A stretch of DNA of 60,826 nt, filler included, from Dugesia japonica (lineage: Eukaryota), in the NCBI GenBank assembly GCA_001938525.1. It is 6 parts of 6 records of this genome, joined end to end, with 100 filler letters (N's around TTAATTAATTAA, not from the genome) between each part and the next. Parts side by side here need not be neighbours in the genome. Positions count along the whole stretch, not along the records: positions 50,783 to 60,826 come from MQRL01600742.1; 5 more parts are not named here. One strand, 5' to 3'. Made by a program: the position numbers and the translations under genes. The stretch's first letter is position 1. Each line of letters opens with the position of its first letter. Under the pieces are notes generated by a model that had not been told where the DNA came from, did not search any database, and was given only the letters and a program-made list of their open reading frames with translations. This document shows, one piece after another, positions 8,837 through 60,090 of the stretch.

Positions 8837-8848
8837 TTAATTAATTAA
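8837..8848. other. Artificial contig-joining linker TTAATTAATTAA (also 18512-18523, 27909-27920, 40840-40851, 50727-50738)
   Basis: Identical six-frame-stop 12-mer embedded in N runs five times. Confidence 0.95.
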
Positions 8849-8892
8849 NNNNNNNNNNNNNNNNNNNNNNNNNNNNNNNNNNNNNNNNNNNN

Positions 8893-18300: not shown

Positions 18301-18567
18301 AAAAGTCACAGAATAACATACGGGAGCGGGGTGTCCGGCAAAGTTATACAAAAGTGTCAGAACTAGAAAAAAAACAATTTATTACTTATATACTAAACAA
18401 AAACACAAAATTGAATTAAATAAAACTAAAAAACCTTTATAAACAAAAACAAACCTTAATGTAAACANNNNNNNNNNNNNNNNNNNNNNNNNNNNNNNNN
18501 NNNNNNNNNNNTTAATTAATTAANNNNNNNNNNNNNNNNNNNNNNNNNNNNNNNNNNNNNNNNNNNN

Positions 18568-18718: not shown

Positions 18719-19320
18719 GTTTTACAGTTTTTGATATTCTTTGAATAAATAAATTATTATTCTTTTAATAAGAAATTTCTGAATATTTTACACTTATAAA
18801 TATATGTCTTGGTTTATAAGATAAAAAAACTTAATTTTACTGAATAATAGTTTCTTGAATCTAGATTTGTTTTGGAAACAATTCTATTTAAAAAGGAAAC
18901 TTGAATAGATTTATTTGCGTTAATTCTTTCCAAAAGATTCAATTCCATTTTTGGTGCTAATCTACATTTTGGAATATGTTTTTCTAGAGTTGTTAATTTT
19001 AAAGTAGCAGTATTATCTTTATCACCATAAAATAATAATTTATCATTTATTTGTATATTACAAGTAAATTCAATCATTGTATTATATAATAATCTGTTAT
19101 AAAATTGTAAAAATCCAAATAATTTTTTAATGAAAAATAACCTTTAAATTTCTTTTTTGAATTATAAAATTTCTTTCTTCTGTAAAAACCCATATTTGCA
19201 TCCCATCCATCAACATCAACGTCATCTTTATTTATATCTGGAATTTATCCACATTAATCATCGTATTCCTTTTTACAAGTTGAAGCAATTGTAATAAAAT
19301 TAAAAATCAATTTTTTAAAA
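18719..19320 (-). pseudogene. Double jelly-roll major capsid protein (hexon-like), Maverick type
   Basis: LFGFLQFYNRLLYNTMIEF..LKLTTLEKHIPKCRLAPKMELNLLERINANKSIQVSF..KPRHIFI follows the Maverick MCP pattern GF..DY.KII.N..HEL..W..P.V.L....L.LL....K.I.ISF..KPRYVI. Confidence 0.7.
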
Positions 19321-27842: not shown

Positions 27843-29061
27843 ATTTGAGCTCTTTTCAATTGATNNNNNNNNNNNNNNNNNNNNNNNNNNNNNNNNNNNN
27901 NNNNNNNNTTAATTAATTAANNNNNNNNNNNNNNNNNNNNNNNNNNNNNNNNNNNNNNNNNNNNTAAGTAGAAAAATACTTAACGCCTTTAACGACAAAG
28001 GAGTTTAACAATAACAGATTAGTAAAACCAAAAGAATTATTATATGATGATTTACCTTAAACTAGATGTTTTCTTTTTGGCAGACTTTTTTCAAAAATTT
28101 CGAGAATAGACACACAACAGATTTGAGCCTTTAACATTCTTCGGTATTCCAGGCAGGAGCCGGGCATCAGCTCCTTACAAATTGCTTAAAANNNNNNNNN
28201 NNNNNNNNNNNNNNNNNNNNNNNNNNNNNNNNNNNNNNNNNNNNNNNNNNNNNNNNNNNNNNNNNNNNNNNNNNNNNNNNNNNNNNNNNNNNNNNNNNNN
28301 NNNNNNNNNNNNNNNNNNNNNNNNNNNNNNNNNNNNNNNNNNNNNNNNNNNNNNNNNNNNNNNNNNNNNNNNNNNNNNNNNNNNNNNNNNNNNNNNNNNN
28401 NNNNNNNNNNNNNNNNNNNNNNNNNNNNNNNNNNNNNNNNNNNNNNNNNNNNNNNNNNNNNNNNTATGTAAATGTGTTTATTTAATTTCGATAAGATTTT
28501 AGAATAGTGCAGAACATTAGAATTGGAATCATTGTCATATGGTTATTCATTAGTGAATTCATATGGGAATTCCTGATGATATTCACAATTATCTTAGTGA
28601 TTAAGAGAAAATCAAAATATCGACTAGTATCTAGATATTCCAAATTACTTAATTACTTATGTCATTATCTCCTTTACCATCAAGAACATAAATTTTCGTA
28701 TTTCGTGGTTTTTATTTTATAATGTGGTCCGTTTTTAGTTTCATTTTTTCTACTGCGCTCACACTTTCTGCGCTCCAACTGTTGTATTTCAGATTTTTCC
28801 TTAAATGGGAAATGATAAAATATTTACCTGAGTTTCAGCTTCATTTCCACTAACTTTTTAAATCTGATTATAATTTGTTCAATGTTCGTTGTTATAAGTT
28901 CTAACCATGTTTCTGACTCTAACAAGTCATAGTACTTTATGATACTTTTAATAATAAAAGTTCAATTAAAACAAAAAATTATTAAAAATAAATAAAACAA
29001 AATATATAAATGACAAAAATCAGAATAAAAAATTTCAAAAAGTTATTCTTATTAATTAATT

Positions 29062-30156
29062 TCACTCTAATTTTATCTTTTTGCAATTATTTAAATTGTT
29101 TTCTGTTGAATTTGATCGTTTTAATGAAACAATTTTGTTTACGTTATTATTTGAACTATTTGATAATAATTTCTCTTTATTTTTTATCCAATATAAAATA
29201 GTTGATAATGAAACATTTAAATCACTAGCAAGTGTTGTTATTGTTTCTCCATTTTCGTATCTTTTAATTGCTTTTAATTTATCTAAAATTGGTATATTAG
29301 ATTTTGGTAGTTTCTTTATTCCGATAAATACATTTTCTTCATTTATTTCTTCAATAAAATTATAAAAATTTTTATTTGTCTTTACTCCTTGGTCATCAAT
29401 GAAATTTTCAGAAATATTTAAAAAAGATTTTTGTAATTTGTCTTGATTATTATACCAACTATAAATAGTTTTTTTACTTACTTTAAAAGCACAACTGAGG
29501 CTTTTCAATGTTTCTCCTTTTTTATATCTTTGAATTACTTTTAACTTTTCTAAAATTGATTGTAAAGATTTTGGCCGATACTTTATAATGTTGAAAATAT
29601 TTTCTTCAATTATTTTGTGTTCTTCTTTTTTATTGAAATCAGATAAAGTTTTATTTTCATTTACTACATCAATTGAAAATTCAGAAGAAGATTTTGAATA
29701 TTTCTTCTTTAATTTTTCTTTATTATTATACCAATATAAAATAGACGATTCACATACTTTAATATCACAACTAATGCTTTTCAATTTTTCTCCATTTTCA
29801 TATCTTTTTACAGCTTCTAACTTCTTAAAAATTGGTATTTTTACTTTAATTTCTTTTTTCTGTTTGTTTTCAATATTTTCATTTAATATTATTTGTTCAC
29901 CAATCAAATTTCTAGAAATTTCTGAAATTAATTGATCTTTATTATTTCCCCAAATGAAAGATTTTGATGAATTTACATTTAATTCACAACCAACTCTTTC
30001 AATTGTTATTTCATTTTCACTTTGTTCTTCTGTTTTGGATTTTTGCAAAAGTGGTTTTTGTTTTGAAATTAATATTTCAATTTCTAAATTTTTCTCACGA
30101 ATTTCTATTTGATTTTCTGTTTGAAATTCTTCAGAAATACTAGTATTATCTTTCAT
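29062..30156 (-). CDS. Intronless protein with three tandem CENP-B N-terminal/pipsqueak-type HTH DNA-binding repeats
   Basis: Intact 364-aa ORF in aaaATG context. Three repeats of K(L)..(V/I).RY..GE....(I/L).....VS..(T/S)I..W..N..KL, and a basic C-terminus KKIK. Confidence 0.85.
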   Translation of the reverse strand: MKDNTSISEEFQTENQIEIREKNLEIEILISKQKPLLQKSKTEEQSENEITIERVGCELNVNSSKSFIWGNNKDQLISEISRNLIGEQIILNENIENKQKKEIKVKIPIFKKLEAVKRYENGEKLKSISCDIKVCESSILYWYNNKEKLKKKYSKSSSEFSIDVVNENKTLSDFNKKEEHKIIEENIFNIIKYRPKSLQSILEKLKVIQRYKKGETLKSLSCAFKVSKKTIYSWYNNQDKLQKSFLNISENFIDDQGVKTNKNFYNFIEEINEENVFIGIKKLPKSNIPILDKLKAIKRYENGETITTLASDLNVSLSTILYWIKNKEKLLSNSSNNNVNKIVSLKRSNSTENNLNNCKKIKLE

Positions 30157-31049
30157 TTTAACAATGTTTTAATTATATTTAATTGATTTATAATAATAGA
30201 AAATTAATAATAATAAATTTTATATTTGATTAATTTTATTGGATAAAATTTTAAAAAATAATTACTAAATAATATAAATTAATTAAATTAATGTGATTAA
30301 GAGAACTTCCAATAAAACAATTCAAAAAATTTGATTCTTTCAATATCTCNNNNNNNNNNNNNNNNNNNNNNNNNNNNNNNNNNNNNNNNNNNNNNNNNNN
30401 NNNNNNNNNNNNNNNNNNNNNNNNNNNNNNNNNNNTTAAATTTAATTTAAATTTAATTCATTAAAATGAATTAATAGTAACAACTATCTATTTGGTGGCA
30501 CAACCACGAAAATAGAGCGTCATACTCAACAAAAATTACCTGACAATTTTTATGATCTACAAGTTTCCTGGGAGCTATATAAACTGGCAAATAGAAGATA
30601 GGGACACATAAATCAGAGGCTCGTTTCTATGTAGATTCTTATAGAAAATTAATTTAAATTGAAAATTTTTGAAATGTGTAATTATTAATTGTAAAAATTG
30701 TTTTAAAAATTCGAATTGTCATAAATTAATATAATTTTATTCAACTCAATTCTCATTGTTATACTATTTTTTAAAATTATTTATTTTAAATTATTATGTT
30801 ATTAAATTATAATAATAATAATAATAAATTATTTAAATAATTATTCGAAATTTTTTGAAAATTTTTGTTCTAATTAATTTTTATTATTTTCTATATAATT
30901 AAAAATAATACATTAAAATTATTTATTTTTTCATTAAATTTTATCAAAAAGCTTCTTTCATTTCATATCAAAAATTTTCGTTTATTTCGTTTTTTCTAAA
31001 ATTTTTAAAATTTAATTTATTGATATTAATATTTTTAAAATTTTAATTA

Positions 31050-34295: not shown

Positions 34296-34962
34296 TAGGG
34301 GTTCAAACTATTCGTCATTTTCAACTATCCGGATATCGAATAATAAAACTGAATCTATACGGATAGTTTTAGTAAGTATAAAAATAACAAAACACTACTA
34401 TATATATATAAGTTTATATACTAAAATAATACATTAAAAACAATTTCATTTGTAATATAAGTCATTTATTCAGATTTTAAAAAGTATTTAAAATCTTTTT
34501 TCAGATTATTTGTATTGTCATTTGTATTGTCATCAGTTTCCGCGAGAGATAAAATAAAATTACGCATTTCATGTTGCAATTCGGAAGTCAAAAAAGAAAG
34601 AGGTGTTACTTCCACATCAGAGTCCTAAGTGATTTCATCATTACTAGATAACAAATTTGGGTGAATTCTGTCAATAATAATTTGTGCCAAAGAAATGGCC
34701 TCATATTTATTTGAGTATTGAAGATGTTCATTAGAACTGGGGACATTTCCATTTTGCAGATATATCATGAGTGTGATTATTTTTTGTATGTGTGCGTTCG
34801 CTCATTTCTAAGTAATGGTATTCATATCATCTTTCGTCGATTTTGTAAAATATTTCATTAAAGGTTACAACGAATACTATCCAGATATTTCCTTAATTAT
34901 CTGGATATCGAATAGTTAAAAAAGGACCGGATATATCCGGATATCCGAGTTAGAATCCCCAA
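34296..34962 (-). mobile_element. Non-autonomous hAT-like element
   Basis: TIR taggggttcaaact / agttagaatccccaa; subterminal tatccggatatc repeats at both ends. Confidence 0.6.
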
Positions 34963-34969
34963 ACAGGTA

Positions 34970-37110
34970 CTGTTATCAAGATTATAGAAATGAGATCCCT
35001 AATGAAAATTTACGAGGACAAGGAACATCGTACCAACGAATTGTTGAAAAGGAAGGTATTTGTGATACAAAAAAGATGAGTTATGCAAATGTAGTTAAAC
35101 CATACATAAATAGAGTTAAAGAGGATAAACATAAAATACCTTTTAATAATTTGTCAGTAAAAAGAGTATATGAGAGGAGCACCCAACCAGTGATAATGGA
35201 AGATAGAACACAGGTGATGAGGCCAAAACCGACAAAATCGATGAAATAATTGACAAGATTTTATTTTAATAGACAAAGAAGATTTCCAGAACCTCGTGAA
35301 GAGAAACACCAAGAGTAACAATGTTATTGCTGTTGAGAACATAAGCATAAACGATACCAATGCCCGTTAAAAGACAAATTTTTAATTTGCGGCACGTCTG
35401 GACATAACTTTAGGTCTTGTTCGATTTTACTGGGTTCGTCTAACAGAAGGAACATTAAAGTTTTGTGTATTCAAGAAGAATTAGACTATTCAAAAGATGA
35501 CGATGAGAGTGTGAAAGATCATGTTGTAGTAATGGCAAAAAACAAGAACGACTCCATTGCTTAGATTTTGTCGATGGAGTCAGTATAGAAAAAGACGAAA
35601 TAAATCGAGAGTGGAGACGAGTAAATGTTAATGGAGTAAAGTTAGAGGTGTTGTGGGATTCATGAGCTTCGGCGAAAGTCATGAGTGAAAACTATTGGAT
35701 TAAAATTGAAAAACCGTTGTGGTCAATGTTTAATATCAGATTAAATGGAGCATTTAATAAAGACAGATAAAAACCGTTTGGCATAGCAGAATTAAGTATA
35801 CAGTGGAAAAGAAAGTCAGAAAATTTAAAGTCATCATAGTTAGACAGATCCACCAAGAATTAATAGGCGGTATTGATACAATGCAAATTTTTAAAGTGAA
35901 ATTAACAGAAATAAATAACATCAAAAATGAGAGTCTGAAGATAACAGATTCTGATGAAGATAGAAAAAATAACGCGTTGAAATTTTTTTAATAACAGAAA
36001 AATGGTTCAGTTGATTCATAATCTTCGTGAGATATTCAAAGCTTCAAAGTTCGACATTAGGCATACGAGAAAAGCAATACATGAAATAAAAGTTAATAGA
36101 GATCCAATAGTTCAGTACCCTAGAAGAAAGCCAATGCCTTTAAAAAAGAAAATTGAAGATATGGTTAAAGAATTAGAAAAGATTGGTGTGATTAGTAAGT
36201 ATTATAGTCCTTGGAATTCCCCTTTAGTGATTGTGAGTAAAAAGGATGGCTCGATAAAGATGTGCGTGGATTACAGAAAATGGAATTTGAGGACAGAAAA
36301 GGTGTCTTTTCCAATACCAAACATGCATTTATTATTAGATTATTTATCTGGCTGGGAAATATTTTCATCGATTGATCTAAGCCAGGCTTGTAATAAAGTG
36401 GAGTAAGCGGAAAAGTCAAGGGTTGTCACTGCTTTTAGAACAAAGGAAAGCCAATTCAGATTTAACCGAATTCCTTTTGGAGTAGTTACAACACCGATCA
36501 CATTTCAAAATTTAATGCACTAGTTATTGGATGGATTAATTTTCAAAGGAGTTATTGTATATCTAGTCAATATTTTGTTGTACGTAAAATCTTTGGAGGA
36601 TCACGCCAAAATGTTATAGACAGTCTTTTACAGGATCAGAGACTCGGGATTAAGAATAAATACGGAGAAAAAAAGTTTTATCAGAAAGAAGTTTTATTCT
36701 CGATGCATACAGTGATTGCAACTGGTAAATGTACTATTGAATTTAAGATTTAGGAGATTAAGGATGCTATAGTTCTAGAATGTTCTTCAAAACTTCGTTC
36801 GTTTCTTGGACTAACAAACTACTACAGACGTTTCATAAAATATTATGCAAAGATAGCAGCTCCTATATATGAAGCAACTTCAGGTTGCAACAAACTGTTA
36901 GTTTGAACAGATGCATACCAGAACAGTTTCAATGCGTTAAAGGACAATTTATGTAGTGCTCCAGTATAAGAATATCCAAGGGAGGTTCGGGTGTTCATTT
37001 TAGACACTGGCGCCAGTTTTAGTAATATGGGTGCACTCCTTAGTCAATGCGAAGAGGAAAAGAGAGTGGCGTGTGTATTCAGACATTTGACAGCTTATAA
37101 AAATATAGAA
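34970..37110 (+). mobile_element. Degenerate Ty3/Gypsy gag-pol (zinc knuckle, protease, RT, RNase H), truncated
   Basis: CGTSGHNFRSC knuckle; LWDS*AS protease; SPWNSPLVIVSKKDGSIKMCVDYRK RT; LRSFLGLTNYYRRFI; ILDTGAS RNase H. Confidence 0.92.
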
Positions 37111-37151
37111 ATAATTTCTTAATAACAATGCAATGACAAGTTGTAGAGTTA

Positions 37152-38442
37152 TACAGCGTGTGAGAAAAATAAGTAACTATCAGATTTTAAAATTTTATAT
37201 TGTTAAATGTATTTGAAATAATATTGCAAATATTTAACACAATAAAATTCAAATATTAAAATTTAATATTTTTCTACAGAACATCCATTAAAATCGATAC
37301 AAGTTTGTAAACGATTATAAAAAGAAGTCATAGCATTTTCATACATTTCCAGTGGTACTTTAGCTGCCTCTTCTTCAATTAAATCTTTCAGGTCTTGGAT
37401 CGTCTTTGGTTTTCATATATAAACCTTTGTCTTCAAGTATCCCCAAAGAGAAAAATCCATTGATGAAAGGTCTGGTGATCTCGCAGCCCAATTGAATGAC
37501 CCACATCTTCCAATCTGCCTTCCTGGAAATGTTGTGTTCAAAAAATGTCTAGACTGAAGCGAGTAATGAGCAGGCTGTCCATCCTGTTGAAAAGTTAATT
37601 TCAATATTGTTCTGAGACGAAGTTGAAGCATGAGCTAAGATTTAAGAATCTCTAAATAATTAGAGCCATTCACATATTCATGAAAGAAGAAGGGAATACT
37701 CATCCAAGCAGTAACCTTTAGATTGGAATGGCATATTTGGATTATTACATTGGGCGGTTCAGTTCCCCAAATTCCGCAAGTTTGTCTATTGACAAATCGA
37801 TTTAAATAAAAAGTGGCTTCATCAATGCAAATAAGATTTTCTAGAAACTCTGAATCATTGTAGATTTTATTAAGTAATGTTTGATACATTCCTATGCTTT
37901 CAGCATAATTCTCATCATGCAGCAGATAGAGCACTTCAATTTTTATGGAAAAAATGAAGTTTACGTCGTAGTACATTATGTACTGTTTTGAAACTGCATT
38001 CAACTTCCTTAGCAGCATTTCTGGTAGAAGTCATAGGAGCTTCTGCATAAATTTCACAAATTTCATTCATTTTTCTGTCATCAATTGAAGGTTTTCTAGT
38101 GTTGTGAATATCGCAAGCACTGCCAGTCTTTTGAAATTTTGTAAATATGTCTTTATCGTATATTTTTCCATTTGATATTTTTTAAATGTCGTTGAACTAA
38201 TGTCGCTGAATTCTTCTAAGCCATCAACAATACAATTTCAACTCTTTCTTCAATAGTGAAAAATATACAAACTTGAATTCACCGCACCTAAATGTTTTTT
38301 GTATTAATTTATTTAAACAGTTTTACACTTAGAAAAGATTTTGAAATTCTATTTTTATATAAAGTAAAATTGGTAAAATGAAATTATAAAATAAACGTTT
38401 GGTAGTTTTAAAATCTAGTATTTACATTTTACACACCCTTTA
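37152..38442 (-). mobile_element. Near full-length degenerate Tc1/mariner-superfamily element
   Basis: DEATF..VNRQTCGIWG, FQQDGQPAH and WAARSPDLSSMDFSLWGYLKTKVY motifs; TA-flanked TIRs cagcgtgtg../..cacaccctt. Confidence 0.9.
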
Positions 38443-40520: not shown

Positions 40521-42043
40521 CAGTTAGTTCGAAAACAGGTGACCCATTTGTAGTAATTTTTGTAGTCTGGGCTTGTTCAAAACTCTATGTTTAAATAATT
40601 AATTAATTTTCAGTGAAATCAACCATCACTATTTTATCCTAGTGAGTAGGATATATTTCTGATAATTAAATTTTGATTTGACCAATATGTATGTTGTGAT
40701 TGATGTGACTCGTATGAACATTGTGTAGGAATGATATAATATATTTCTCGAATCATTGCATCACTTATATTCCCCATATTTAAGAATTTGATTGGNNNNN
40801 NNNNNNNNNNNNNNNNNNNNNNNNNNNNNNNNNNNNNNNTTAATTAATTAANNNNNNNNNNNNNNNNNNNNNNNNNNNNNNNNNNNNNNNNNNNNATTAA
40901 ATATTTATTTCAAATAAAATTCTGATTATACATTTCAATAGGAAGATTTGTTAAACTTTTTATTGATATCAATGAAAATTAAAAGAAAATTATCAAAAAA
41001 ACATGAAAAAAGAACTTTCATTGGGATAATGGTTTCAAACATATTTTAATTAGTTTATTTTACTGAATCTCTAAAAGAAAATGAAAATTGAAAACAGAAT
41101 TATACTTTTAGCTATCATTAAATATAATAAAATAAACATGTATTTATATTGGATATTAACAGACGAATGGGATTTATTTTATAACTCCGAAATGTATTTC
41201 TTTCATTAAAAAATTGAAATCCAACAATAACGAGTTAACTAGAAATATCAACCATTGAAATTTATATATACTTTTAGTTCTGTGACAAAACACTTCTAGT
41301 TGCAATATTTACATGATTGCATCAAATTTTGTAGCTGTCACAATACTAGGAAAAATGTACGGAGTTAATTTATTTTCAATAAAAACGCTTCTTATACAAA
41401 ATAAAATAAAATGGAATCATTCTCAAAATCAAAACTATTTTACCCAATTTTTATTTGTCAGCAAAGAATTTTTAGAAACTCCTTAAAAGATTTTTCAAAC
41501 AAAATTTCTAAAATAAATTTGTTTTTCTTCAATATTTGCTTTAATAATGAATCAATCATCACGAGTATCACAATACATAAAAAATATAGTAAAAAATCAA
41601 AATGTCAAACAATAATATATTATATTCAAAATTCGCGAATTAAAATGTCACGTAATAATAATTAATAGTAGTGATAAAGCAAAAATTTTAAAAAATACAA
41701 AATTAAATAAATCTCGGATTATTACTTTGAGACTTTAATAATTTCTTCTGATGTTTCTTTGGTATATAATATTGTGTATGTTTGCTCGTGTGAATATTAA
41801 AGTAGATTTTGATTAAACAATTTGTTTGAATGATAGAAAAATTGGACTTGTAATGCTATGTTAGGAATGTTCTTACAATAGATAACAAATAATATAACCA
41901 AATATATAACGATTTAATTGATAAACGAAATTAAAAGAACAACATATACAAATTAATATCTTATTAAACTGATAATTTAACTATAATAATTATTAACTCA
42001 TGAAATCAATAAAATTAAAATTAACAAAATAAGTAATTGTTAT

Positions 42044-44157
42044 TGTTGCGTCACTAAATTATTTGTTTTAATTAACTTTTTTGTGATAAAAATACAATTT
42101 TTAAATTCAAACTCTGCTGATTCTATTCGTTAATTATTATACAAAATAATTNGGAACACAANATTTTTGTCGGAAGTGTAATTTCAGAAAACAGTCATGT
42201 CTCAATCAAGTTTCCGAATTATTTTGAAAATTCTTCAGTATGGTTCAAGTAGAATGAAGCAATTTTTCAATTATCCAATATCTGTAGGCCAAGGACAATG
42301 TTCCTGCACTTGATATCAAACATTCCATAAAATATTCTTGACGAATTTCATGAACATCTGGACTTCAACGGTGACATGGCGTGTGAACACATGAAAGAAC
42401 CCATAATTCAAAGCAAAATCGGAAATCCACTTCATGTCACATGAAGAAAATATTTGACAAATCAATGCACCAGAGTGGTCGTCAATCAACAAAGACACTA
42501 AGGAAAATGTTGGGGCACTTCAAACAGATATCTGCAACAATGTAATGCTTCGTATCACATTCATTCAACATTTTCCTAAATCAATAGCACAACATCTAGC
42601 CTTACAGGACTCCATATCCATAAAAGATCTACGTCTGACGGCCAGTAATCTAAAGCAATGGAGCGATGCCACCACATCTACACCACCAACTAACAAAATA
42701 CAAAACAAAATTCTCACGAATAATAAAACACTGTGATAATGTTACCGTTGATGTATATAATTGCCTAGAAAGAATAAGTTGTTTCAGATTTGAAGAATTC
42801 CAGAAATTAAACAACTTCTCATAACGCGAGGCAAACAACTCTATAAAGATGGTCAAACAACGCTATCTATATCTCAATATGAAATTGGACATCAGAAGAT
42901 GGACAAGAGAATGTCTTAAATGCCAAAAAGCTAAAATATTAAGACAGACAAATCAACCTTAGGAATACTACAAAACTTAGGAAGCGTAATAGGTAAAAAT
43001 TATAGAAGCAGTGCCATTGGGTTAGATAACAAAAAAAATTTATTGAGGTTTTATAAAGAGAATGATTCAGCAGATTCAGTAGTCTGAAATATTAATCACA
43101 GATCAAAGGAAGCAATTCACTTCATCAACATTTCAAGACATGAGCAATAAAATTGGTATCAATAACATGATTACAACAATATATTATTCACAATACAATG
43201 AAAAAGTCGAGAGATTTCACAAAACCCTAGAAAACGCAGTCAGGGTGCACTGTATCAATGCCAAGAAAATACGGAACAAAGACCTTTTAAAAGTAATAAA
43301 AAACTGTTATTCATCACTATGACGAACTATCACCAGAAGAAGTAGATAAAAAAATAAAAATCAGCGACAATCAACACCGACCAAAAATTCAGAAATTAAG
43401 ACTTTATTTCCTAATGAATTATACGACTGCAAACATACTTCATACTGTAATTATAGCTATAATTATAGCTGTATATTATTATATACCAAAAATCAAATTT
43501 AAAGTGTATTATTTTGTTTCTTTATAAAGGCAAACGAATACACTATCTTAACATATTCATACGTTTACGATAAAGATATAATTTATATAATAATTGTATC
43601 GACATATAACAAAGGGTAAAATCAAAAAATCGTAAACTCATCAAACTTATCGTCAATTATTTAGCTTTAATATTCGAACCATAAACTCAACAGATAATTC
43701 AACTATACGGTTTCTAGGGGACTTGCAAATTAGAATTCATTTTGACGAACTATAACAAGAAGTAGATAAAAAAAATCAAAATCAACGATAATCAACACCG
43801 ACCGAGGATGCACAAATGTAAGACTCTCTTTACTAATGAATTAAACGACTGTAAAGAAGAGTGGTTGAAAATTGAAAACCCGAGAAGTTTACAATTCTTA
43901 TGTGAAGGCCCATTCAAAGTAATCGATAGAAGTGCAGATATGAAAGACTTCAAAATCTAGATCAATGGCGAATCAAAAAATGTCTCCGTAGATCATCGAA
44001 AGCCAACAAACAATCATTTTGAAATTACTCAGTGATTCTGTTGGGGGCAGTGTTGCGTCATAAATAATTTGTCTTAATTAACTTTTTATAAAATTACAAT
44101 TATTAAATTAAAATTCTTTGCTGATTCTTTTCGTTAATACAAAATAATTTGAACACA
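42044..44157 (+). mobile_element. Internally deleted Ty3/Gypsy element with two ~110-bp LTRs (42044-42160, 44051-44157)
   Basis: tgttgcgtca..gaacaca LTRs; PPT gggggcag; gag FPNY..WF..EA.F; integrase ..RWTRECLKCQKAK, DQRKQFTS, VERFHKTL; no RT. Confidence 0.88.
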
Positions 44158-44732
44158 ACTTTTCTATTATAATAATTTGAATTTTGTTAAAATGTACGGA
44201 TTATCGACAAGCAGATCTTTTTAAATTTGGTGAAATACATTTTTTGAATGATTTAATTTTTACTTTATTAAAAACAGCAATTAAAAATTTTCTTGTTAAT
44301 AACAATGAATCAAGAAAAATAATTGACAATGATGGCTTTAAATTAAAATGTTTCAATAATTTTAGCTATATGAATAGATATCACTAAAGTTTCTTTCAAA
44401 GTTAAGCTCTTAACGAAACCCTTATTAAAGTAATTGTTAATATAGTTCACTTTATCATAAGAAAGTTTTACTTCACATTCTGAGCGCAGATAAAGCCTTT
44501 GCCAAATGTAGTTTTGCTGATTGCTTCATACTTATATTCATGCATATGTATCTATACATATTTGGATATTTGCAAATAGTTAGATTCACAAATTTTAAAA
44601 TCTGTTTCATTAATAAAAACCCATAATAAAATAATAAGTTCTTCAGTGACACACGCATCCAGCGTTAATGACAACTGATCATNNNNNNNNNNNNNNNNNN
44701 NNNNNNNNNNNNNNNNNNNNNNNNNNNNNNNN

Positions 44733-45631
44733 ACGATAATCAACACCGACCGAGGATGCAGAAATGTAAGACTCTCTTTACTAATGAATTAAACGACTGT
44801 AAAGAAGATTGGTTGAAAATTGAAAACCCGAGAAGTTTACAATTCTTATGTGAAGGCCCATTCAAAGTAATCGATAGAAGTGCAGATATGAAAGACTTCA
44901 AAATCTAGATCAATGGCGAATCAAAAAATGTCTCCGTAGATCGCCGAATGCCAACAAACAAACATTTTGAAATTACTCAGTGATTCTGTTGGGGGCAGTG
45001 TTGCGTCACTATATAATTTGTCTTAATTAACTTTTTATAAAATTACAATTTTTAAATTAAAATTCTTTCCTGATTCTTTTCGTTAATACAAAATAATTTG
45101 AACACAATTTTTGTATTATAATAATTTGAATTTTGTTTAAATGTACGGATTATCGACAAGCAGATCTTTTTAAATTTGGTGAAATACATTTTTTGAATGA
45201 TTCAATTTTTACTTTATTAAAAACAGCAATTAAAAATGTTATTGTTAATAACAATGAATCAAGAAAAATAATTGACAATGATGGCTTTAAATTAAAATGT
45301 TTCAATAATTTTAGCTATATGAATAGATATCACTAAAGTTTCTTTCAAAGTTAAGCTCTTAACGAAACCCTTATTAAAGTCATTGTTAATATAGTTCATT
45401 TTATCATAAGAAAGTTTTACTTCACATTCCGAGCGCAGATAAAGCCTTTGCCAAATAAAGTTTTTCTGATGCCTCCATACTTATATGCATGCATATGTAT
45501 CTATACATATTTGGATATTTGCAAATAGTAAGATTCACAAATTTTAAAATCTGTTTTATTAATAAAAACCCATAATAAAATAATAAGTTCTTCAGTGACA
45601 CACGCATCCAGCGTTAATGACAACTGATCAT
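44733..45631 (+). repeat. Near-identical duplicate of ~43785-44682 across a gap
   Basis: Same integrase end, LTR and flank with scattered substitutions; probably an uncollapsed haplotype. Confidence 0.85.
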
Positions 45632-50350: not shown

Positions 50351-50782
50351 ATTTAATACTTTAAGGAATGATATAGATACCTATTCTTGAGAGAACTTTC
50401 ATGTCTTGGTTGACAGAGTATACTACTCCAGTTAGAAAAGGTGATGATTTGGAAACTTCCAGTTTAACAATTTGTAATATTTTATAAAGTATGTCTTCAT
50501 AAAGAAAGTTTTCCATAAGTTCTGTATTTAACATAGTGAAAAGCTTAGTATTTTGAAAGCTATCTTTTAGTTCATGATATTTCCGAACATTCATTGTCTA
50601 TCTTGCTGTTGTAGTAAAATGGTCTTTAAGTAATATTTTCTAATGGTATATGGTTTGTAATCTCTGCATCTGGTTTTTGAGCNNNNNNNNNNNNNNNNNN
50701 NNNNNNNNNNNNNNNNNNNNNNNNNNTTAATTAATTAANNNNNNNNNNNNNNNNNNNNNNNNNNNNNNNNNNNNNNNNNNNN

Positions 50783-51070
50783 ATGAATCAGTTCCTTGGC
50801 CATCGTTTATTATTTTCGTTGTTCGGATTACCGCTTTTTTACTTTGTTGGCTTTTTATTTCCTCGTTATCTCTTGCTGTAGTTCTAGTTCTTTCGTCCTT
50901 CGCACGAATTTTGGTCTTCTTATCCAATTTTGGCTTTCGTCATTCTTTTCTCCAAATAGATTATGCCTTTCTTGTCCGATTTCTTCATTTTCTTTTCTTA
51001 GGTAGATTTTTCAAAGTTCGTGTTTACTTACGCCATTTTATTTGCCTTAATCTGGTGTTTCACCCCAACA
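50783..51070 (+). mobile_element. Right end of LTR-like unit (..gtttcaccccaaca)
   Basis: Same terminus at 18718, 58339 and 60090. Confidence 0.8.
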
Positions 51071-51091
51071 ATACTAAGAAAGTAATAATAC

Positions 51092-53160
51092 TGTTGGGGT
51101 ACTACCTGACTTTTGTGGCGGAAAAATGGAAAAACAGCCCTCAGGGAACCCTTTCAAGAATTTAACCTAAAGTCTCTTATTTAGGCTTTCAGTGTAGAGC
51201 GGTTGACTTTTTATTTTATGAGAGGTACACACCCGTACACCTTTAATTCGGGTCCATACTTTTCGTTTCTCTTATGCATAAGATTCAAAGAAAACTAGTT
51301 GAAAAGTTCTATTGACATAACAGTTACATTTCTTCCAACGCACTAGGATCTAACCACTGATCTGGATCGGTCGTCACAAAATTGAAGGCGGCGACGTCGT
51401 CGTTGTCGTCCCATTGCACCCAAGTGGGGTTACCAATTTGACATGACAGGTCGGCTATATATTGTTTTAAGAAATCTACTTTCCGTTGCAATATCTGGGT
51501 ATTCTGTGCTTTGAAAGCCTTAGTTTTTTTCGGCCAAGTCATTTTGTTTCTTAACCACTGAATCTAACTTCTTGATCAATTGATCTCGCTCAGAGAGATG
51601 TCTTAACAGAGCCCGGTCGGTTTTACGCTTTAAATGGCGTTCTAGCAACAGACGGCGCATGATCCGATGACATCTCCGCAAACTATTTGGAAAAAAAAAT
51701 TCGTGGCACTAAATTATTAATCATTAATAATAGGGAAAAAACAATGAATATTATCGATATCAAACTAGTCTAGTCAAAATTTAGGTGATATACGCTAAGG
51801 CAAAGATTATAACACTCGATTATTTATTTACAGAAACAGAAAATTTAGTCACGCGATATGGATTTTGCCTGCGTGCTCTTATCAACCATGAGGGGTTCTA
51901 GGTAGGATTTTTTTAAAGATGCAGGATATCCTTGACCAGTTTATTTTCACGGTCATGGCTGGACTGGATAATCTCGGCGAACGACTCTACCTGGGATTTC
52001 CAAATTCTTTCTTTGTCGTGCGCAGCTTCCATCTCTTTGCGTACGTTAACAAATTTATTCCTATAACGCTTCACTTTTGCGTTCGCAGTGGATATCTCAG
52101 CTTCAAAACGGCGTTTTGCCAGCCGATATAACTCCCAGGACATTTCGGTGTCATCACTGGAGTCTCTCATCTGCTTATTGGGGGCCGATGGTCAGTTTAA
52201 TGATGAATGCACTGTAACATAAATACAATAAAATAATGGAATCTAAATAGGACTGGCTATGGTTCAAAAAGTAAAAACAGAATGGGGTCTTAACCAATCA
52301 AGTAATAAAAAGACAGAGAAAAGCAAATTCTTAATTAAATCTTTATTTCAAATTAACTAGGTTACACTAACACCTCTGAGATTTCCTCCTCGGCGTTTTC
52401 GTTGTTATTACTAGACATATCATTACAGGCACTCCATAAATAGTTCTGAACGAATTGGGTTGCTGAGGGCAGGCTACTGGTAGTCATGCCTACTAAAGAA
52501 GGTCCATTATGCCATATACGTTCTACTTGTTGTGCTTTCCGATTTCTCTCAAAAGAAAGCGGTGCCGGGGGAAAAACAACCCGGTCTCTTTTAGGACCAG
52601 TCCAGTCGTAGTATGCGTGTCTCTCGGTTGCATTCCAGTGTATCTCTGTTATTGCCTGGTCAAACGGCAAGTTTGATCTTTCTACCAAAACTCCTGCATC
52701 TCGGTCGTAGAGGTTTTGATATTTTTTAAACACTGTGCGTCCTGAATTAATGTCGAGACTAATCTCCCATTTATACTACATCTATTAAAGTGAAAATATT
52801 TAAAGTAACATTCGCAAATACAAATCTCGCAATAATGAACACAAAAGTAAAAATTTTATTCGGTACGAATTAATTTAACATGCAATTTCTTATTCCCCTC
52901 AGACTCTATTTGATCTTCCAGAGGAAACATCTCTGCAAAACACTGAAGATCAGTTTCGTTTGGATGTTTGATTTTCCCATTAGTCAAAAAATGAGCTATT
53001 AACTGTCAAAATCGAGCGGTTTGGCGTTGTTGTCTTATTCATCGCAGGGTATGGCGCAGTTCTGCTGACAATAGCTAAAAATAATAAATGTATACTGGTT
53101 AAATTCAAAGTTTGAGTTCTCATAAACTATCTAAAGACACGTAGCATAGAAGTGTAGTAA
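51092..53160 (+). mobile_element. Truncated left half of LTR-like unit with antisense 4-ORF cassette (copy 1)
   Basis: Starts tgttggggt; colinear with 53384-55500. Minus-strand ORFs D ~52885-53074, C 52362-52781, A 51845-52211, B 51324-51708. Confidence 0.8.
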
Positions 53161-53383
53161 TATCATTAGTGGCCTTGTAGTATTCAATATTTTGTTAATA
53201 ATATCTAGAAAAATAATGTTGGGTGTTTTAGTATTATTGGTAATAATGATGATAAAAAATTTTTAAATACTTTTCAAGATGATATCAATACTAATAATAA
53301 TGGTAAGAATAAATCCTAATAATAATTATTATTAATGATAATAGCAATAGTAATATTAATAATAATAATAACAATAATAATAA

Positions 53384-56300
53384 TTTTGGAGTCCCACCTG
53401 AGTTGAGTCACAAGGAAAAATGGCTGGGGAAAAATCAGCCCTCAGGTAAACCCTTTCAAGAATTTACCCTACCGTCCCTGTAGTAGGTTTTCAGTTTATG
53501 GCGGTTGACCTTACTCTTAATGGAAGGTGCTCACCGATAAACCTTTAATTTCGGGTTCTATATTTTTCCCTATTATTAAAAAAAATTAAATTACAACGCT
53601 GATTAAATATTTTATTAAAATTAAACATTTTAGAGCAGATCCAATGCTCTCGGATCTAGCCACTGGTCAGGGGACGTTACTACGAAATTGAACGCAGCGA
53701 CATCGTCATCGTCATCCCATGGCGCTACATTGGGATTGCCAATTTGTCGGTACAGGTCAGCAATATATTGCTTCAAAAAGTCGATTTTTCGCTGCAATAA
53801 TTGCTTCGTTTCGGCTTCTAATGCCTTGGTCTGGATAGCAAGGTCATTTTGTTTCTTTATGATGGTGTCTAATTTTTTAATTAACTGGTCTCGTTGCGCC
53901 AGATGCTTTCATATGGCTTTGTCGGCCTTACACTTCAGGTGCTGTTCCAGAAGAAGGCGGCGCATAATGCGATGACATCTTCTAAGGTTATTTGGGAACT
54001 GAATGCGTGGCACTAAAAATTAACAAAATATAATGAAGGTTAATATCATTGAAATTGTCATCAACGAACTAAACAAAGAAATTGAAAAAATTCAAGGTCA
54101 AGAGACATAAAAACTCATATATTTTTATAAATGTCAAACGTGGGGATTAAGTTTGGTCTGGGTGCCCTTATCAATCATAAGGGGCTCCAGATAAGATTTC
54201 TCTTTTAAAATGAGAATATCTTTGACCAGTTTATTCTCGCGGTCATGGCTTGACCGGATAATCTCAGCGAAGGATTCCACCTGGGCCTTCCATACCCGCT
54301 CTTAATTTTGTACCATCTTCATTTTGTCGCGGACATTTATACATTTGGTTTTGTACCGCTTTACTTTAGCGTTAATGGTTGCGATTTCTGCCTCCCAACG
54401 CCTCTTGGCCAATTTATATAGTTCTCAGGTAATCTCTCTATCCTCGTTATCCTCGCGTAGTTTTTTTGTTGGGGCTTGTGATCGGTTTAAAGACGAGTGC
54501 ACTAAAATACAATTTACATAACATTTAAGAATTCTACGGAAGACTGAATTTAAAAAATAAAAAAAAATACGGTCAATAAGACAAGAATTATTTAGTTATA
54601 ATTTACTAAAGAAAACAAATATCGTTTTAAATTTTATTTCAGGACTAGAATGTTAAACTAACACGTCGGAATGCTCCTCTACATTTTCATCATTAGTACT
54701 AATTAATGCGTTTCGAACTCCCCACAGATTGTTCTGTATAAAGGATGTGAGTTGTGCCGTGGGAGGCAAGAAACTCGTAGTAAGGCCGACCGATGAAGGG
54801 CCATCGTGTCAGACACGTTCTATTGGTGGGATTTCTGCCGAACGTTCAAAGGAAAGAGTTGCTGGGGGGTGGCGACCGGGTCTCTACGTGGACCTCGCCA
54901 ACTATAGTAAGCAGCTCGTTCGGTTGCATCCCATTGCCGCTAATTATCAGCTATTTCAGGAGGTAGATTGGTGTTATAGACCAACACACTGGCATCCCGG
55001 TTATATGGGTTCCGATATCTTTTGAAGGTTGTCTTACCAGTGTAGATATCTAGGCATACCTCCCATTTAGATTCCATGTCTGTTTATTTATCTTCTATAA
55101 TAAATAGCCGATTAAGCAAATTTTTATTTACCAAAAATGAAGTATATTTAATTAGTATCTAGTTTATATTCAGGAGAAATAAACCACAAGTAAAATAAAA
55201 CATCGAATTTTAATTCATAAACAATATATGACACTTGACTGAATACACTTCGACTGAGAGATTATACCATTGATTTAGCTAGTGTGGTTACTCCTCATTC
55301 ATGTCCACTCTATGTTCAAGAGGAAACATCTCAACGAAACACTGAAGGTCAGTTTCGTCGGGGTGCTCCACTCTGCCTTTTGTCAGATAGTGGACGATCA
55401 ATTGTTTTAGGCGAGTGGCTTGCCGTTGCTTTCTTATCTGACGTAGAAGGTCTCGAAATGTTGACGCCCTCATCTAATCACAAAACACAATTTTAATTTT
55501 TTATAGTAACCCCTGCCTCTGTTACACCTTTGAAGGGAGATTTGGCTGTGGTCGGCCTATTTTATAATGCTGTCACTTGGCTGAATCAAATCACTAATCT
55601 CCCAGTTTATTATTATAAAACCCAATCACATCTTATTGGGTAATTTTTTGTCTTAATATGAGTCCGGTTTCAAAGCCACTCCATAGAATTGATAGTGATA
55701 TTAATTAGATCGAACCGAGAATTAGACATTGGGTTTACAGGGATCATACCCGTAGTTTTCGCAGGCATGTACCATCAGTCATATTAGTAATAACAAATGA
55801 AAGAATTAATATTAGCCCTACTACTAATAACGGTATTAGCAAGATCCTTCCAAAGTAGTCAAGCTTATCAGTGATTTTAACATAGTACAGATTATCCCAA
55901 TACTCGTAACGTGGATGAAGATGGCTAGAAAATTTTAATAATATAATACTGTTACTCTCAATGCTAACAAGAATATTAATATTAATAATGTCACTAATAA
56001 ACCATAACAATAAAAAACGTTAGTAACCATAATATCACTAATCACCTCGTCAATAATAATAAAATGCAAATATCCGAATAAAATTTATAATAACAATACT
56101 ACTCCTATTATGAGGTTAAGAATTAATGAATAATAATAACCCTTACAATATATTAATAATAATCATGATAAAGCACTAAGATTCCCAATAATAATATTAG
56201 TTACAACCATGGAGGTATCAGTGCAATATTTAAACAGGACTAGTATCAGAGAAATTAAAAAAAACAGAATATTTGATTTGTATTTCGTCACTACAAGCTC

Positions 56301-58339
56301 AGAAGCCTCCCAAAATATCCGAGTGTTATTATATAATTATTGTATTCAAATTCCGGCCTTACATCGTTGCTTGGCGACTAAGTTAATCTATTCTACATGC
56401 ACACGTACTCGAGGTTAGACGGTAAATTACACCACTACTTGGCTAATTCTAATCATTAACGCAGAATGTATATTGCATAATTTTCCATGAAAAACAATGA
56501 TACCCGAAAAGTGGAATTTATTTGGCTCAAATCGTGACTAATCAATTCTTTTTCCTTTTTATTTATGCCATGCAAAACTGCAGACACATTTTGATTATGT
56601 TAGGCATTTTTGATTGACGAGTTGGATTTATGGATTTTATCGCCAAAACTAGAGTTATCTCGTGTGTCGTTTCGAACGGATATTATTATTTATTTTGGAT
56701 GAATAACTTTCTAGTGATAGAATAGTGAGTTATTTTGTTAAAACATTAAATAAATTCATTTAGTAGTTGTTTCTTAATCTATGTATTAATAGCTAATTTG
56801 TTTTAAAATTTACCTAAAATATATCAAATAGGAGTAACATTTATTAATTTCTTATTTATTTGTCAATCCCTGTATTGGTTATATGCAAAGTGTTTCTTCT
56901 AAAATTGATTATCATTTCATAGCAAGGAACTTCAGTTAATACTGTGATTTATCTAGTCAGTAATTTTCATTGATTACCCTAGAGTAAACTACTTTCAATT
57001 TGAATTTTATTTATTATCACATGGATTTAAAGTTTCTAATTTTGACTTATTCACTAATCAGATTACTAATTAAACATTGTGCAAATTATTTTGAATTTGA
57101 ATATTATTAAAGAGACTCAGGCTACTAACGTTGAATTATTTCTTAACGCATATCTAAACATAATGTAAATCATTTTTAATTTGAAATTTCTCAACGAGAC
57201 TTAAGCTTCTATTTCTGCTATTTTATCTAATAGTTAAACATAAAATAAAATTCAAAAAAGGAAAATTTTTAATAACATTAATTATGAAATAGACACACCA
57301 TTATAAAATACATATTAAAATTTACTTTTCAAATCAGCAACTATTCTGGTTTAACAACAGTTAAATATGGGAGGATGGCGATAGCAAATTTCGGTAGACG
57401 ATTACTTCTTCTGTGGCTTACTAAAATACTCAGAATTTTATTCTCTCGACCCGAGTTTTCTTCCCGTACGATATCACGATGGCAATTTTTATTGAAGGGT
57501 ATTCTAGAAGAATTTATTACAAGTGAAGCTATTTCAGTCTCCAACTAACTGTTTGAATAGTTAATTTTAGTGGTGGTTGATTTCTCGAACCAATGATGAA
57601 CAATTTTTTCAAAGGCTTAAATTAGGTCTTATCAAGGATTAACGTATGAAAAATAATGATAATAATGAATTAATTTACTAAAATCAGAGATCTATTTTAT
57701 AGGGTTTATCTTAGAACCCGTCTTCTTTTAGATTTGCTGACTATTTTTAGATCAGCCTCTTTTTGATTCTATTGGTTTCATCCCCCAATCTTTATAATTT
57801 TCTACAAATTTTTTGTGCTATGATTGGCAGCTATTTTTATCAGGCCACATGATATTTGGTTCTTTGTTATATTTTTAATTTCAGGTTTTCTATTGGCCGG
57901 ATCTTAGGAACCTTGCGGTACCCTTCTGGAAGGTGGTAAGTTTTCCTTCTTCGGGAATTTAATTGCACTTGGCTATTTTCTCTTTATTTTTTCTTGTCCT
58001 GATTCTTTCCGACTTCCAGGACCAAAGTTATCCAAGGAAAATAGATTTTTGATTAATTTTGTTTCTTTTTTATTTTAAAATTAATTAATTTTCTTTTGTT
58101 AATTAATTATTTTTCTCATTGCTTTTCTTCGCTGTTTATTATTAAATTAATAATTGCTTTTAATTTCCCAAGTAAGTTGCTCAGTTTATCATATTCACCT
58201 TTGATTTTATTTCGTTCCCTTCCAATATTGATTTCAGACCTTATTTTTCTATTACAGGTGATTATTGTGGTTCTATTATTATTATACGTTGATTTATCTT
58301 TTCGGCTTGTTCCCGTTTAGCGGGTGTTTCACCCCAACA
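53384..58339 (+). mobile_element. Apparently complete ~4.96-kb LTR-like unit with antisense 4-ORF cassette (copy 2)
   Basis: Degenerate start ttttggagt, end accccaaca, ATAA on both sides. Minus-strand ORFs D 55288-55473, C 54653-55077, A 54134-54501, B 53630-54012. Continuity of the middle part is inferred. Confidence 0.6.
55288..55473 (-). CDS. Orphan 61-aa cassette ORF D (open in copy 2)
   Basis: gattag|ATG start; the homologue in copy 1 conserves IR.QRQ..R..QLI.H.LT.G...HP.ETDLQCF.EMFPLE. Confidence 0.55.
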   Translation of the reverse strand: MRASTFRDLLRQIRKQRQATRLKQLIVHYLTKGRVEHPDETDLQCFVEMFPLEHRVDMNEE

Positions 58340-58649: not shown

Positions 58650-58700
58650 CATAATAACAATTATCATAATAATGATAATCATAATAATAACCACAGTAAT
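58591..58700. repeat. (AAT)n microsatellite between LTR-like units
   Basis: perfect then degenerate aat run. Confidence 0.95.
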
Positions 58701-58719
58701 AGTAACGAGAAGTTTACTA

Positions 58720-60090
58720 GTCTGATTAAACATAATCACAAAGAGGTAATTACTAATAATCAGGCAAAAAATATATATAACTAAGTCATCTAAATGCATA
58801 CGATCATGGATAGTCGGTAATCCGAATGACTGTGTCCACCCCCGGGTTTCAGCGTATTTACTCTCACTTGTTTAAAATTTATAATCCCATGCTAATTATA
58901 TTTTCTGGTTTGCACTGTGACAATTGCATGTCAAGTTGCCAATGGTTAAGGACAGTGGAAATTACTCCCTGCGGTATTATGGCCGAAAAACAACATGCTG
59001 CATTGACACAGAACACCATCGATTTGATATTACGGTTGCTATTTTTCTCTATCATTAATTGAAAGAGAAAATATATTTGAAGAATAAATAACTAATTTCG
59101 GATTAAACGTTGTATTTTTGTACAGTTAAAATTAAATTTAACAACACTATTTATTACATCATACTACATTTTCAGTGTTAAATTTCTCACTAATTTTCTT
59201 CTAGTAGTAGAATACTTTGTCCACTTGAAGAAAATTCAATTGATTTGTTACATGTTTCTACGATGAACAATAAAGTGACTTTACGTACTCCTGGTTTTGC
59301 ACTAGTAAAGTAAAATTTGACGATAATGCTGGTAATGCCAAGTAACTTTTATAAAGTGATACAGTCTTGGTGTTAGTTTTTGTTAAAGTTTTTTGTTGTT
59401 TTTTCACTAAACTTTCCATGGCTTATATAGGACTTTGGTTGCATCCCGACTGTGTTCTTGTTGGTCGGTTATTTTTAGTTTGAATCTTTTAAATTTCATT
59501 GGATCTGATGTCAATCTTCGGAGAGTTCTGGAATTCTGATTGGTAGCTATTTTTGGATTGTCAGGTGAGATTTTGTTCTTTGTTTTATTTTATTTTCAGG
59601 TATTTCATTGGTCCAGTTTTCAGGGTACTACCACAGTATTCTGGGTGATGGTAAGGTTTATTACTGGTGAAATATTGATGAACCAGTCTGAGTCCTTCCA
59701 AAATTTATTTACGCTGAGCTTCTCGGATTTCCTGGAGCAAAGATATTTAGCATAAACGAATTTTTTGTTTAATTTTCCTTTATTTTAGAACTTAATTAAT
59801 TATTATTTTCTTTATAATTAATTCTTTTGATTAATAATTTTCTTGTTTCTTTACTAACAATTTAATAATTTTCTTTAATTGATTACATTAATGGATGTTG
59901 GCTTGATGACCCAAGTTCATTGTTGTCGGGTTTCTCTTAGGTTGTTCATTCACTCATTAATTTACACCTTGTTCGATGGTTGTACTCGTTCTTTTAACCG
60001 TTTTTGGTGCCTTATAATTCTTTCCCGTATTTTATAATCAATGATCGCCTTGATCTTGCTTCTTCCTTTATTGTGTGTTTCACCCCAACA
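58720..60090 (+). mobile_element. Diverged right part of another LTR-like unit
   Basis: 59560-59760 is homologous to 57845-58050; ends gtttcaccccaaca followed by an AAT-rich tract; left boundary uncertain. Confidence 0.65.

Follow-up and report, generated by a model that had tools for sequence, protein, structure and literature searches.

Small open reading frames of a decayed repeat in Dugesia japonica that may receive the first base of their start codon from a spliced leader

How could two unrelated genes of one mobile element come to begin, in every copy at hand, on the last two bases of a start codon? The question is raised by a 60,826-nucleotide (nt) stretch of Dugesia japonica DNA (assembly GCA_001938525.1; six parts joined by filler), here called the window, along whose full length all positions are counted. 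Two tandem copies of a cassette of four small open reading frames (ORFs) lie on its minus strand at 51.1-55.5 kb, in the order D, C, A and B, followed by a conserved terminal block. The copies are 68% identical across their best 1045-nt match, and the ORFs (39-47% GC) stand apart from the AT-rich spacers (20-27% GC). Seven of the eight cassette ORFs are disrupted by stops or frameshifts, copy-2 D being the sole intact one, and both copies are decayed pseudogenes of a high-copy mobile element. A first-pass annotation had proposed that A and B obtain their start codon by splicing, from a shared leader ending in A. We put the chance that a shared cis-spliced leader gives the A of A/TG in both ORFs at about even, a figure of judgement and not of computation.

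On the minus strand A begins as TAG/TG at 54501 and CAG/TG at 52211, and B as TAG/TG at 54012 and 51708 (the slash marks the predicted junction), just as the first-pass annotation had it. The 20 nt ahead of each of these starts hold 10-13 T and no second AG, and the in-frame codon that spans each acceptor is GTG. All eight cassette ORFs start at a YAG (Y, C or T) or 2 nt behind one; YAG is present at 2% of the window positions, and TG comes next in 140 of its 2331 sites (6%). The earlier statement that C and copy-2 D have an ATG of their own at or near the acceptor also held: that of C directly adjoins the acceptor in copy 1 but lies 2 nt further on in copy 2, and D has one in copy 2 only. Between A and B there is no detectable relation (418 and 440 of 500 shuffles score as high), and we count it in favour of an A-ended leader that TG, the sole dinucleotide completing ATG, starts two unrelated ORFs.

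Codon conservation had been said to reach above the first internal ATG up to the acceptor, and the differences between the copies bear this out. Codons 1-14 of A comprise 4 identical, 5 synonymous and 5 non-synonymous pairs, codons 1-17 of B comprise 9, 6 and 2, and codon position 3 holds 16 of the 27 base differences upstream of the first internal ATG in the two ORFs together (binomial p 0.005). No internal start is common to both A copies, because the methionine at codon 15 of copy 1 is a leucine in copy 2, where the first in-frame ATG stands at offset 179. Nor is there a usable genomic ATG at the conserved N-terminus, G-TG being found in both copies of A and of B and in a third, transcribed A variant described below, all of them old or partial. 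The proposed phase 1 was harder to settle for B than for A: the longer T-run of copy-1 B brings it into frame from the exon's first base onward, and a comparison of just the two copies leaves the phase of B ambiguous, either reading costing about equal changes. Among family contigs (32 of 17,726 aligned pieces examined), X12 record 26 spans A at 54237-54520 with 27 differences and no gaps, and X11 record 16 spans 53801-54018 with 23 differences and no gaps, which favours phase 1 for B as in copy 2. Contigs of X10-X12 cross the spacers, and hence behave like DNA and not RNA.

The spacers have a recurrent layout. Same-strand cassette genes are separated by 79-208 nt in which a poly(A) signal precedes the acceptor; an AATAAA-like signal lies behind D, C and A in both copies, and 3' of B copy 2 has AATAAA and copy 1 AATAGA. 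Ahead of A and B, the spacers show no GT donor common to both copies and no conserved mini-exon, in agreement with the first-pass annotation. We rejected the reading of A-D as exons of one multi-exon gene, since A, B and C terminate at stop codons whose places match between the copies, with no common donor ahead of these ends. Judged from the DNA, the anatomy of YAG starts, T-rich tracts and conservation appears real and more than chance, and it is well supported that the AGs would serve as splice acceptors and that A and B would be translated from the straddling codon.

From this arrangement we infer the use of the AGs, a single leader and promoter, and an A at the leader's end. An intact element would then have had one non-coding leader exon ending in A, cis-spliced to one of the four acceptors; splicing would complete the A/TG of A and B, C and D would use their own ATG, and a single rule would serve all four genes (A/ATG, A/ACATG, A/TG and A/TG). 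The ORFs would share leader and promoter and differ in their 3' ends or last exons, in the manner of the adenovirus late unit, and unspliced element RNA would yield neither A nor B at full length. The evolutionary route would be the loss of one A from AG/ATG, a loss neutral only under an A-ended leader, which would explain the convergence on TG in two unrelated ORFs. Since C and D have their own ATG and none lies between the TATA-like box and D, a non-coding leader is to be expected. The candidate promoter named by the first-pass annotation does contain a TATAAAA, at 55566, with no ATG before D; its GT sites are less helpful, as discussed below. Further upstream, GT[AG]A sites comprise 12 that are A-ended and 5 that are G-ended, none singled out, and this surplus is the chance expectation in AT-rich DNA. 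A host donor ending in A is used at 6594/6595 (57-nt GCAT intron 6595-6651; one case).

Three raw-read RNA runs with the same species label gave 239, 32 and 8 reads on 51560-57750. All 279 reads are partial and mostly less than 90% alike, which makes them products of other family members or else chance matches; transcription is seen for relatives of A and D. In the three runs no reads fall on C and next to none on B, an absence which at the 80% likeness level says nothing about expression. Loose ends behind D continue the D frame and in X3 stop at the same codon as copy 2 (by eye, 52917 and 55325). Three X6 reads part from the window sequence at 52185, and their overhang of up to 27 letters supplies the opening nine codons of a third A variant; it begins G-TG-CAT, is open in all nine codons and ends at the place of 52212. 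There is thus a transcribed A variant with neither an A before TG nor a genomic ATG. The libraries are stranded, all 41 X3 reads on a host-like match at 53105-53137 having the first mate on the minus strand, and as this host-like sequence has an open frame on the plus strand only (by eye), the usual antisense-first-mate chemistry is indicated. Under that chemistry the X6 reads are antisense to A and their G is the acceptor's genomic G, not a junction base. The sole base observed before TG in RNA is therefore G, and probably genomic.

A number of points weigh against an A-ended leader. No splice joint is found among the 279 partial reads of the three runs (12 of 40 loose-end rows inspected). 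Four X3 reads over 52191, likely sense, give a depth of 154-156 bases in bin 52181-52387 and an average end at about 52219, which lies about 8 nt inside the predicted intron, so that at least some of them are probably unspliced; they weigh little, given thousands of dead copies in host transcripts, yet they belong on this side. The GT sites between the TATAAAA and the D acceptor (55527, 55525 and 55510) would end the exon in G, T and G. Copy-1 D has no ATG, and any common dinucleotide after two YAG sites would arise by chance at about 10%. The ORF at 31812/31813, taken earlier for a distant relative with a genomic ATG, does read MHANLN, but no significant resemblance to A emerges (147 and 186 of 1000 shuffles reach its score; no tblastn match at E<3), and it is unusable as an outgroup for a former genomic ATG in A. 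In cellular genes, introns within the start codon are described as relatively rare in the pertinent part of PMC1626468, and a passage of bioRxiv 2023.08.03.551782 has env joined to a short coding leader in three of the four subclades of fly endogenous retroviruses (ERVs). Of the first-pass proposal, the acceptors and the straddling start codon are backed by anatomy and conservation; the A at the leader's end has against it the missing RNA joint, the G, T and G ends and the unproven outgroup.

Two alternatives keep the splice and change the leader. If a short coding leader, an ATG and a few codons with a phase-1 donor, were spliced to A and B, TG would end an ordinary codon, and C and D would rely on a different donor or promoter. 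Donors are usually G-ended, and such an exon could hide in the upstream 2.7 kb, for which a single copy is at hand. A precedent comes from three subclades, ZAM, Beagle and idefix, which join env to a short peptide or a Gag peptide (bioRxiv 2023.08.03.551782, in the same part of the text). But TG in two unrelated ORFs must then be a coincidence (0.4% with TG specified, about 10% for any shared pair), a leader of this kind, if shared, would put an out-of-frame ATG ahead of C and D, and there is neither a conserved mini-exon in the spacers nor an ATG from the TATA to D; we regard this alternative as unlikely. Somewhat less likely again is a leader ending in G or T, with A and B starting at a junction-made near-cognate GTG or TTG and expressed at a low level. 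The GT sites just mentioned suit it, being G-ended at 55527 and 55510 and T-ended at 55525, two of them standing 54 and 52 nt from the D acceptor, a size like that of the 57-nt host intron, and the sole RNA base seen at -1 is a G, though probably genomic. Conserved near-cognate starts in two of four genes would be unusual, and the TATA match is known from one decayed copy only, with a second TATAAAA at 55505. Leader-made NUG starts are, for their part, discussed in a passage of PMC9851317.

The remaining alternatives dispense with the cis-spliced leader, and we hold both to be quite improbable. An operon resolved by trans-splicing, a spliced leader (SL) being joined to the acceptor of each ORF, would be in keeping with the spacers, whose length of 79-208 nt and makeup (poly(A) signal, U-rich tract, AG) fit flatworm candidates of up to 300 bp (PMC12582326, as far as the part available goes). 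With an AUG-ended SL, D would be read in frame in both copies, including the ATG-less copy 1, and so would copy-1 C and copy-1 B; the first-pass view that such an SL is out of frame holds for both copies of A and for copy-2 B, in which a stop is reached after 4, 4 and 25 codons, and copy-2 C is out of frame as well. Family contigs back phase 1, and no SL-like loose end occurs in the 12 of 40 rows inspected, although few reads reach the acceptors. The least probable reading, by a little, involves no splicing at all: each spacer would have a small promoter of its own, with A and B starting at a genomic GTG, or the pattern would be chance in decayed repeats. The lack of an RNA joint, the likely sense reads that appear to pass the A acceptor, and the three X6 reads with the longest loose end, which stop exactly at the G of GTG, speak for it. 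The X6 reads are probably antisense, however, so that the place where they stop does not mark a 5' end, transcription running through thousands of dead copies would presumably give unspliced reads anyway, and a YAG with a T-rich, AG-free tract stands at nearly every ORF start, ATG-bearing ones included.

What kind of element would harbour such a cassette? The motif TGTTGGGGT opens elements at 58339, 60090 and 51070 on the minus strand, its inverse closes copy 1 at 51092, and copy 2 finishes near 53385 in a degenerate version; ATT-type repeats adjoin all of these ends, the four clear ones as well as the degenerate one. The family is large, 12,088 run-X1 contigs aligning to 50850-58000 at 80% likeness or more and covering 30 of 30 bins, with a depth far greater over the terminal parts than over the ORFs and the terminal block most conserved. 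Its TG...CA ends with a 9-bp inverted repeat are a feature like that of long terminal repeats (LTRs). As a possible target-site duplication of 4-5 bp, TTAT stands beside both 58339 and the degenerate 53385 end, a match that chance would readily produce within ATT repeats. A six-frame Pfam search gave no match in 55600-58339 or 58700-60090 and no integrase, and no primer-binding site, polypurine tract or gag-pol is attached, which is compatible with putative solo LTRs. The TG...CA ends with their inverted repeat suggest a long, perhaps solo, LTR or an LTR-derived unit of a Gypsy-type retrotransposon; RNA opposite to the ORF strand would fit the genomic RNA of such an element. Ginger DNA transposons combine TGT termini with terminal inverted repeats of tens to hundreds of bp and a Gypsy-like integrase. 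The unit departs from them: the ends are TGT, but the inverted repeat is just 9 bp and no integrase is matched.

Other observations touch the element and its surroundings. A fourth family start lies at about 18716; three of the four starts (58339, 60090, 51070 and about 18716) are inside ATT microsatellites and two are head-to-tail with a neighbour, and targeting of ATT repeats by the family is possible. Two members have in common, in their 5' parts, a block of 66% identity (57820-58165 and 59537-59880); on the plus strand its T-rich tract runs into a CAG, which might act as an acceptor for the opposite direction. Copy 1 has a short reading frame opening ATG CAT at 51279. The terminal block has possible hairpins but makes no case for a structured RNA: 3 of 25 pairs are changed on both sides, which 72 of 500 shuffles of the two sequences reach, and single-strand z-scores of -0.40 to 0.52 are likewise not significant; Rfam gave two small nucleolar RNA matches, at chance level only. 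A decayed Gypsy-type gag-pol at 34900-37500 on the plus strand matches RVT_1 (E 4.7e-19) and RT_RNaseH_2 (E 1.9e-08), with zinc-knuckle-like motifs by eye; its reverse transcriptase and RNase H, at about 36-37 kb, are 14 kb off and not linked to the cassette element. Upstream and antisense of its gag are two small, GC-richer decayed ORFs on the minus strand (33324-32900 and 31813-31460), both starting ATG CAT and the former directly after a T-rich TAG. They may form a second cassette of the same design, to go by their layout; as relatives of A-D they were rejected, the likeness not being significant. A short fragment related to ORF A, on the plus strand at 30530-30598 beside a gap (none of 500 shuffles scores as high), marks a further, older family member.

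The products of the cassette are unlike known proteins in the searches made. Homologue searches with a piece of C and a piece of A gave four candidates each, none at E<=0.001, and B, read through with X, had no match among 1.84 billion representatives. In the ESM Atlas there was no usable match for C, and for A generic coiled-coil clusters with recognition below threshold; pieces of A-D had weak coiled-coil matches in Pfam, below the cut-off. The structure predicted for D has two helices (predicted local distance difference test, pLDDT, 76) and no match to PDB or BFVD at E<=0.001, and that for C is unusable (pLDDT 36). Viral contigs searched by the terminal motif and by A and D alignments yielded no loci, and the one locus found in metagenome contigs was rejected as a chance match in bacterial DNA of 68% GC. 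A and B resemble coiled coils, and A-D are likely accessory proteins of the element.

Table 1. Cassette ORFs, spacers and flanking parts of the element (positions in the window)
Feature	Positions	Strand	Remarks
ORF A, copy 2	54134..54501	-	about 122 codons, likely coiled coil; TG right after AG 54503-54502; stops at codons 26 and 67
ORF B, copy 2	53630..54012	-	about 127 codons; TG after AG 54014-54013; stop at codon 35
ORF A, copy 1	51845..52211	-	TG after CAG 52214-52212; stop at codon 7; frameshift near 51915
ORF B, copy 1	51324..51708	-	TG after AG 51710-51709; frame offsets at T-run 51699-51691 and near 51525
ORF C, copy 2	54653..55079	-	CAG/AC ATG; stops at codons 46 and 86; frameshift
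ORF C, copy 1	52362..52781	-	TAG/ATG; stop at codon 2, then 137 open codons
ORF D, copy 2	55288..55473	-	TAG/ATG; 61 codons; unbroken; two helices predicted
ORF D, copy 1	52856..53074	-	TAG without ATG after it; stops at codons 12 and 23
Spacer C-A, copy 2	54502..54653	-	20% GC; AATAAA 54638, T-rich tract, acceptor
Spacer C-A, copy 1	52212-52361	-	layout as copy 2; AATAAA 52347
Spacer A-B, copy 2	54013..54133	-	21% GC; AATATA 54123, T-rich tract, acceptor
Spacer A-B, copy 1	51709-51845	-	AATAAA 51828
Candidate promoter region	55474..55566	-	TATAAAA 55566, second TATAAAA 55505; GT sites 55527, 55525, 55510
Terminal block after B, copy 2	53385..53560	-	conserved; ends in degenerate terminus beside ATT microsatellite
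Terminal block after B, copy 1	51092..51260	-	conserved; ends in ACCCCAACA, the start motif inverted
Upstream part of element	55600..58339	-	from TGTTGGGGTGAAACAC terminus at 58339; 29% GC; likely contains leader
Next family member, start	50783..51070	-	TGTTGGGGTGAAACAC at 51070; 21 nt past copy-1 end; cut by gap

Start codons assembled at a splice junction have precedents, from which the cassette differs in different ways. The adenovirus major late unit resembles the cassette in layout, with a common non-coding leader, acceptors and poly(A) signals in series, and one ORF per mRNA; its late ORFs have their own ATG, and the cassette is a chromosomal repeat. According to the relevant part of bioRxiv 2023.08.03.551782, insect ERVs of the springer subclade (Drosophila gypsy group) splice env to the AU dinucleotide of its start codon, and there too an LTR-retroelement ORF lacking its own start is completed at the junction. 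That case concerns one ORF in phase 2 (AU/G), whereas here two of four unrelated small ORFs, with no likeness to env, would be completed in phase 1 (A/UG) at a predicted junction. In Epstein-Barr virus (EBV) EBNA-LP's initiating methionine is created by alternative splicing, and the EBNA unit likewise gives several genes from one alternatively spliced unit (bioRxiv 176099, in the part at hand); EBV is a herpesvirus with no sequence relation to the cassette, and its leader can be spliced with or without the AUG. Flatworm SLs can supply a whole AUG (PMC9851317, in a passage on this point), and SL operons resemble the cassette in short spacers with poly(A) signal and acceptor and in a start codon from a spliced-on leader, but in them the whole AUG is added in phase 0, as against phase 1 for A and B. 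Burro elements, giant Gypsy elements found in planarians, are likewise present in thousands of copies in an AT-rich animal genome, with accessory ORFs and, in some species, decayed fragments; a review of them (PMC6431247, in the part at hand) mentions no spliced small-ORF cassette, and the corresponding parts of PMC8532177 and PMC11410931 add nothing on splicing. Neither a polyprotein nor the Burro accessory domains (BIR, BCL2, MATH, ankyrin and env) had a Pfam match in the A-D pieces scanned or in the upstream part. A multi-ORF transposon cassette with split start codons was not found in the literature searched, which excluded most subscription journals and Repbase reports.

Elsewhere in the window, a double jelly-roll-like fragment at 18817-19143 on the minus strand (PF21738, E 1e-05, below the cut-off) is a possible Polinton- or adintovirus-like remnant. 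A 368-amino-acid ORF at 29062-30168, also on the minus strand, contains three CENP-B N-terminal helix-turn-helix repeats (PF04218, E 2e-21), which match direct repeats of 267/276 nt. The last exons of a host glycine C-acetyltransferase gene lie on the plus strand at 6030-6808, animal proteins being the best among the named matches, at about 50-66% identity, which makes the host an animal and led to the rejection of a mycorrhizal fungus as host; AT content, short introns and repeats would suit a triclad flatworm. In this gene the donor is A-ended for one 57-nt intron and apparently GTT for another. A recent 0.9-kb tandem duplication (43785-44682 and 44733-45631; 97% identity) is possibly an assembly artefact. 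Gaps of 100 nt at 8782-8892, 18468-18567, 27865-27964, 40796-40895 and 50683-50782, several with TTAATTAATTAA inside the Ns, are scaffolding marks, and long-range order across them is uncertain.

Taken at its widest, the reading is of a new LTR-like family of animal elements whose long terminal unit contains a virus-style transcription unit of at least four small genes from new families, in which an A-ended leader provides the first base of the start codon to several unrelated ORFs, splice choice alone sets the protein and unspliced RNA is silent; for this whole picture our confidence is tentative and falls short of even. The principle of split start codons is already known, nothing is overturned, and both copies here are dead. 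If the reading is true, split start codons would reach beyond single genes of viruses or ERVs and take in a multi-gene transposon cassette, and there would be a plain evolutionary route to them, from AG/ATG to AG/TG under an A-ended leader. It would also add four small families of transposon proteins which gene finders would miss or truncate.

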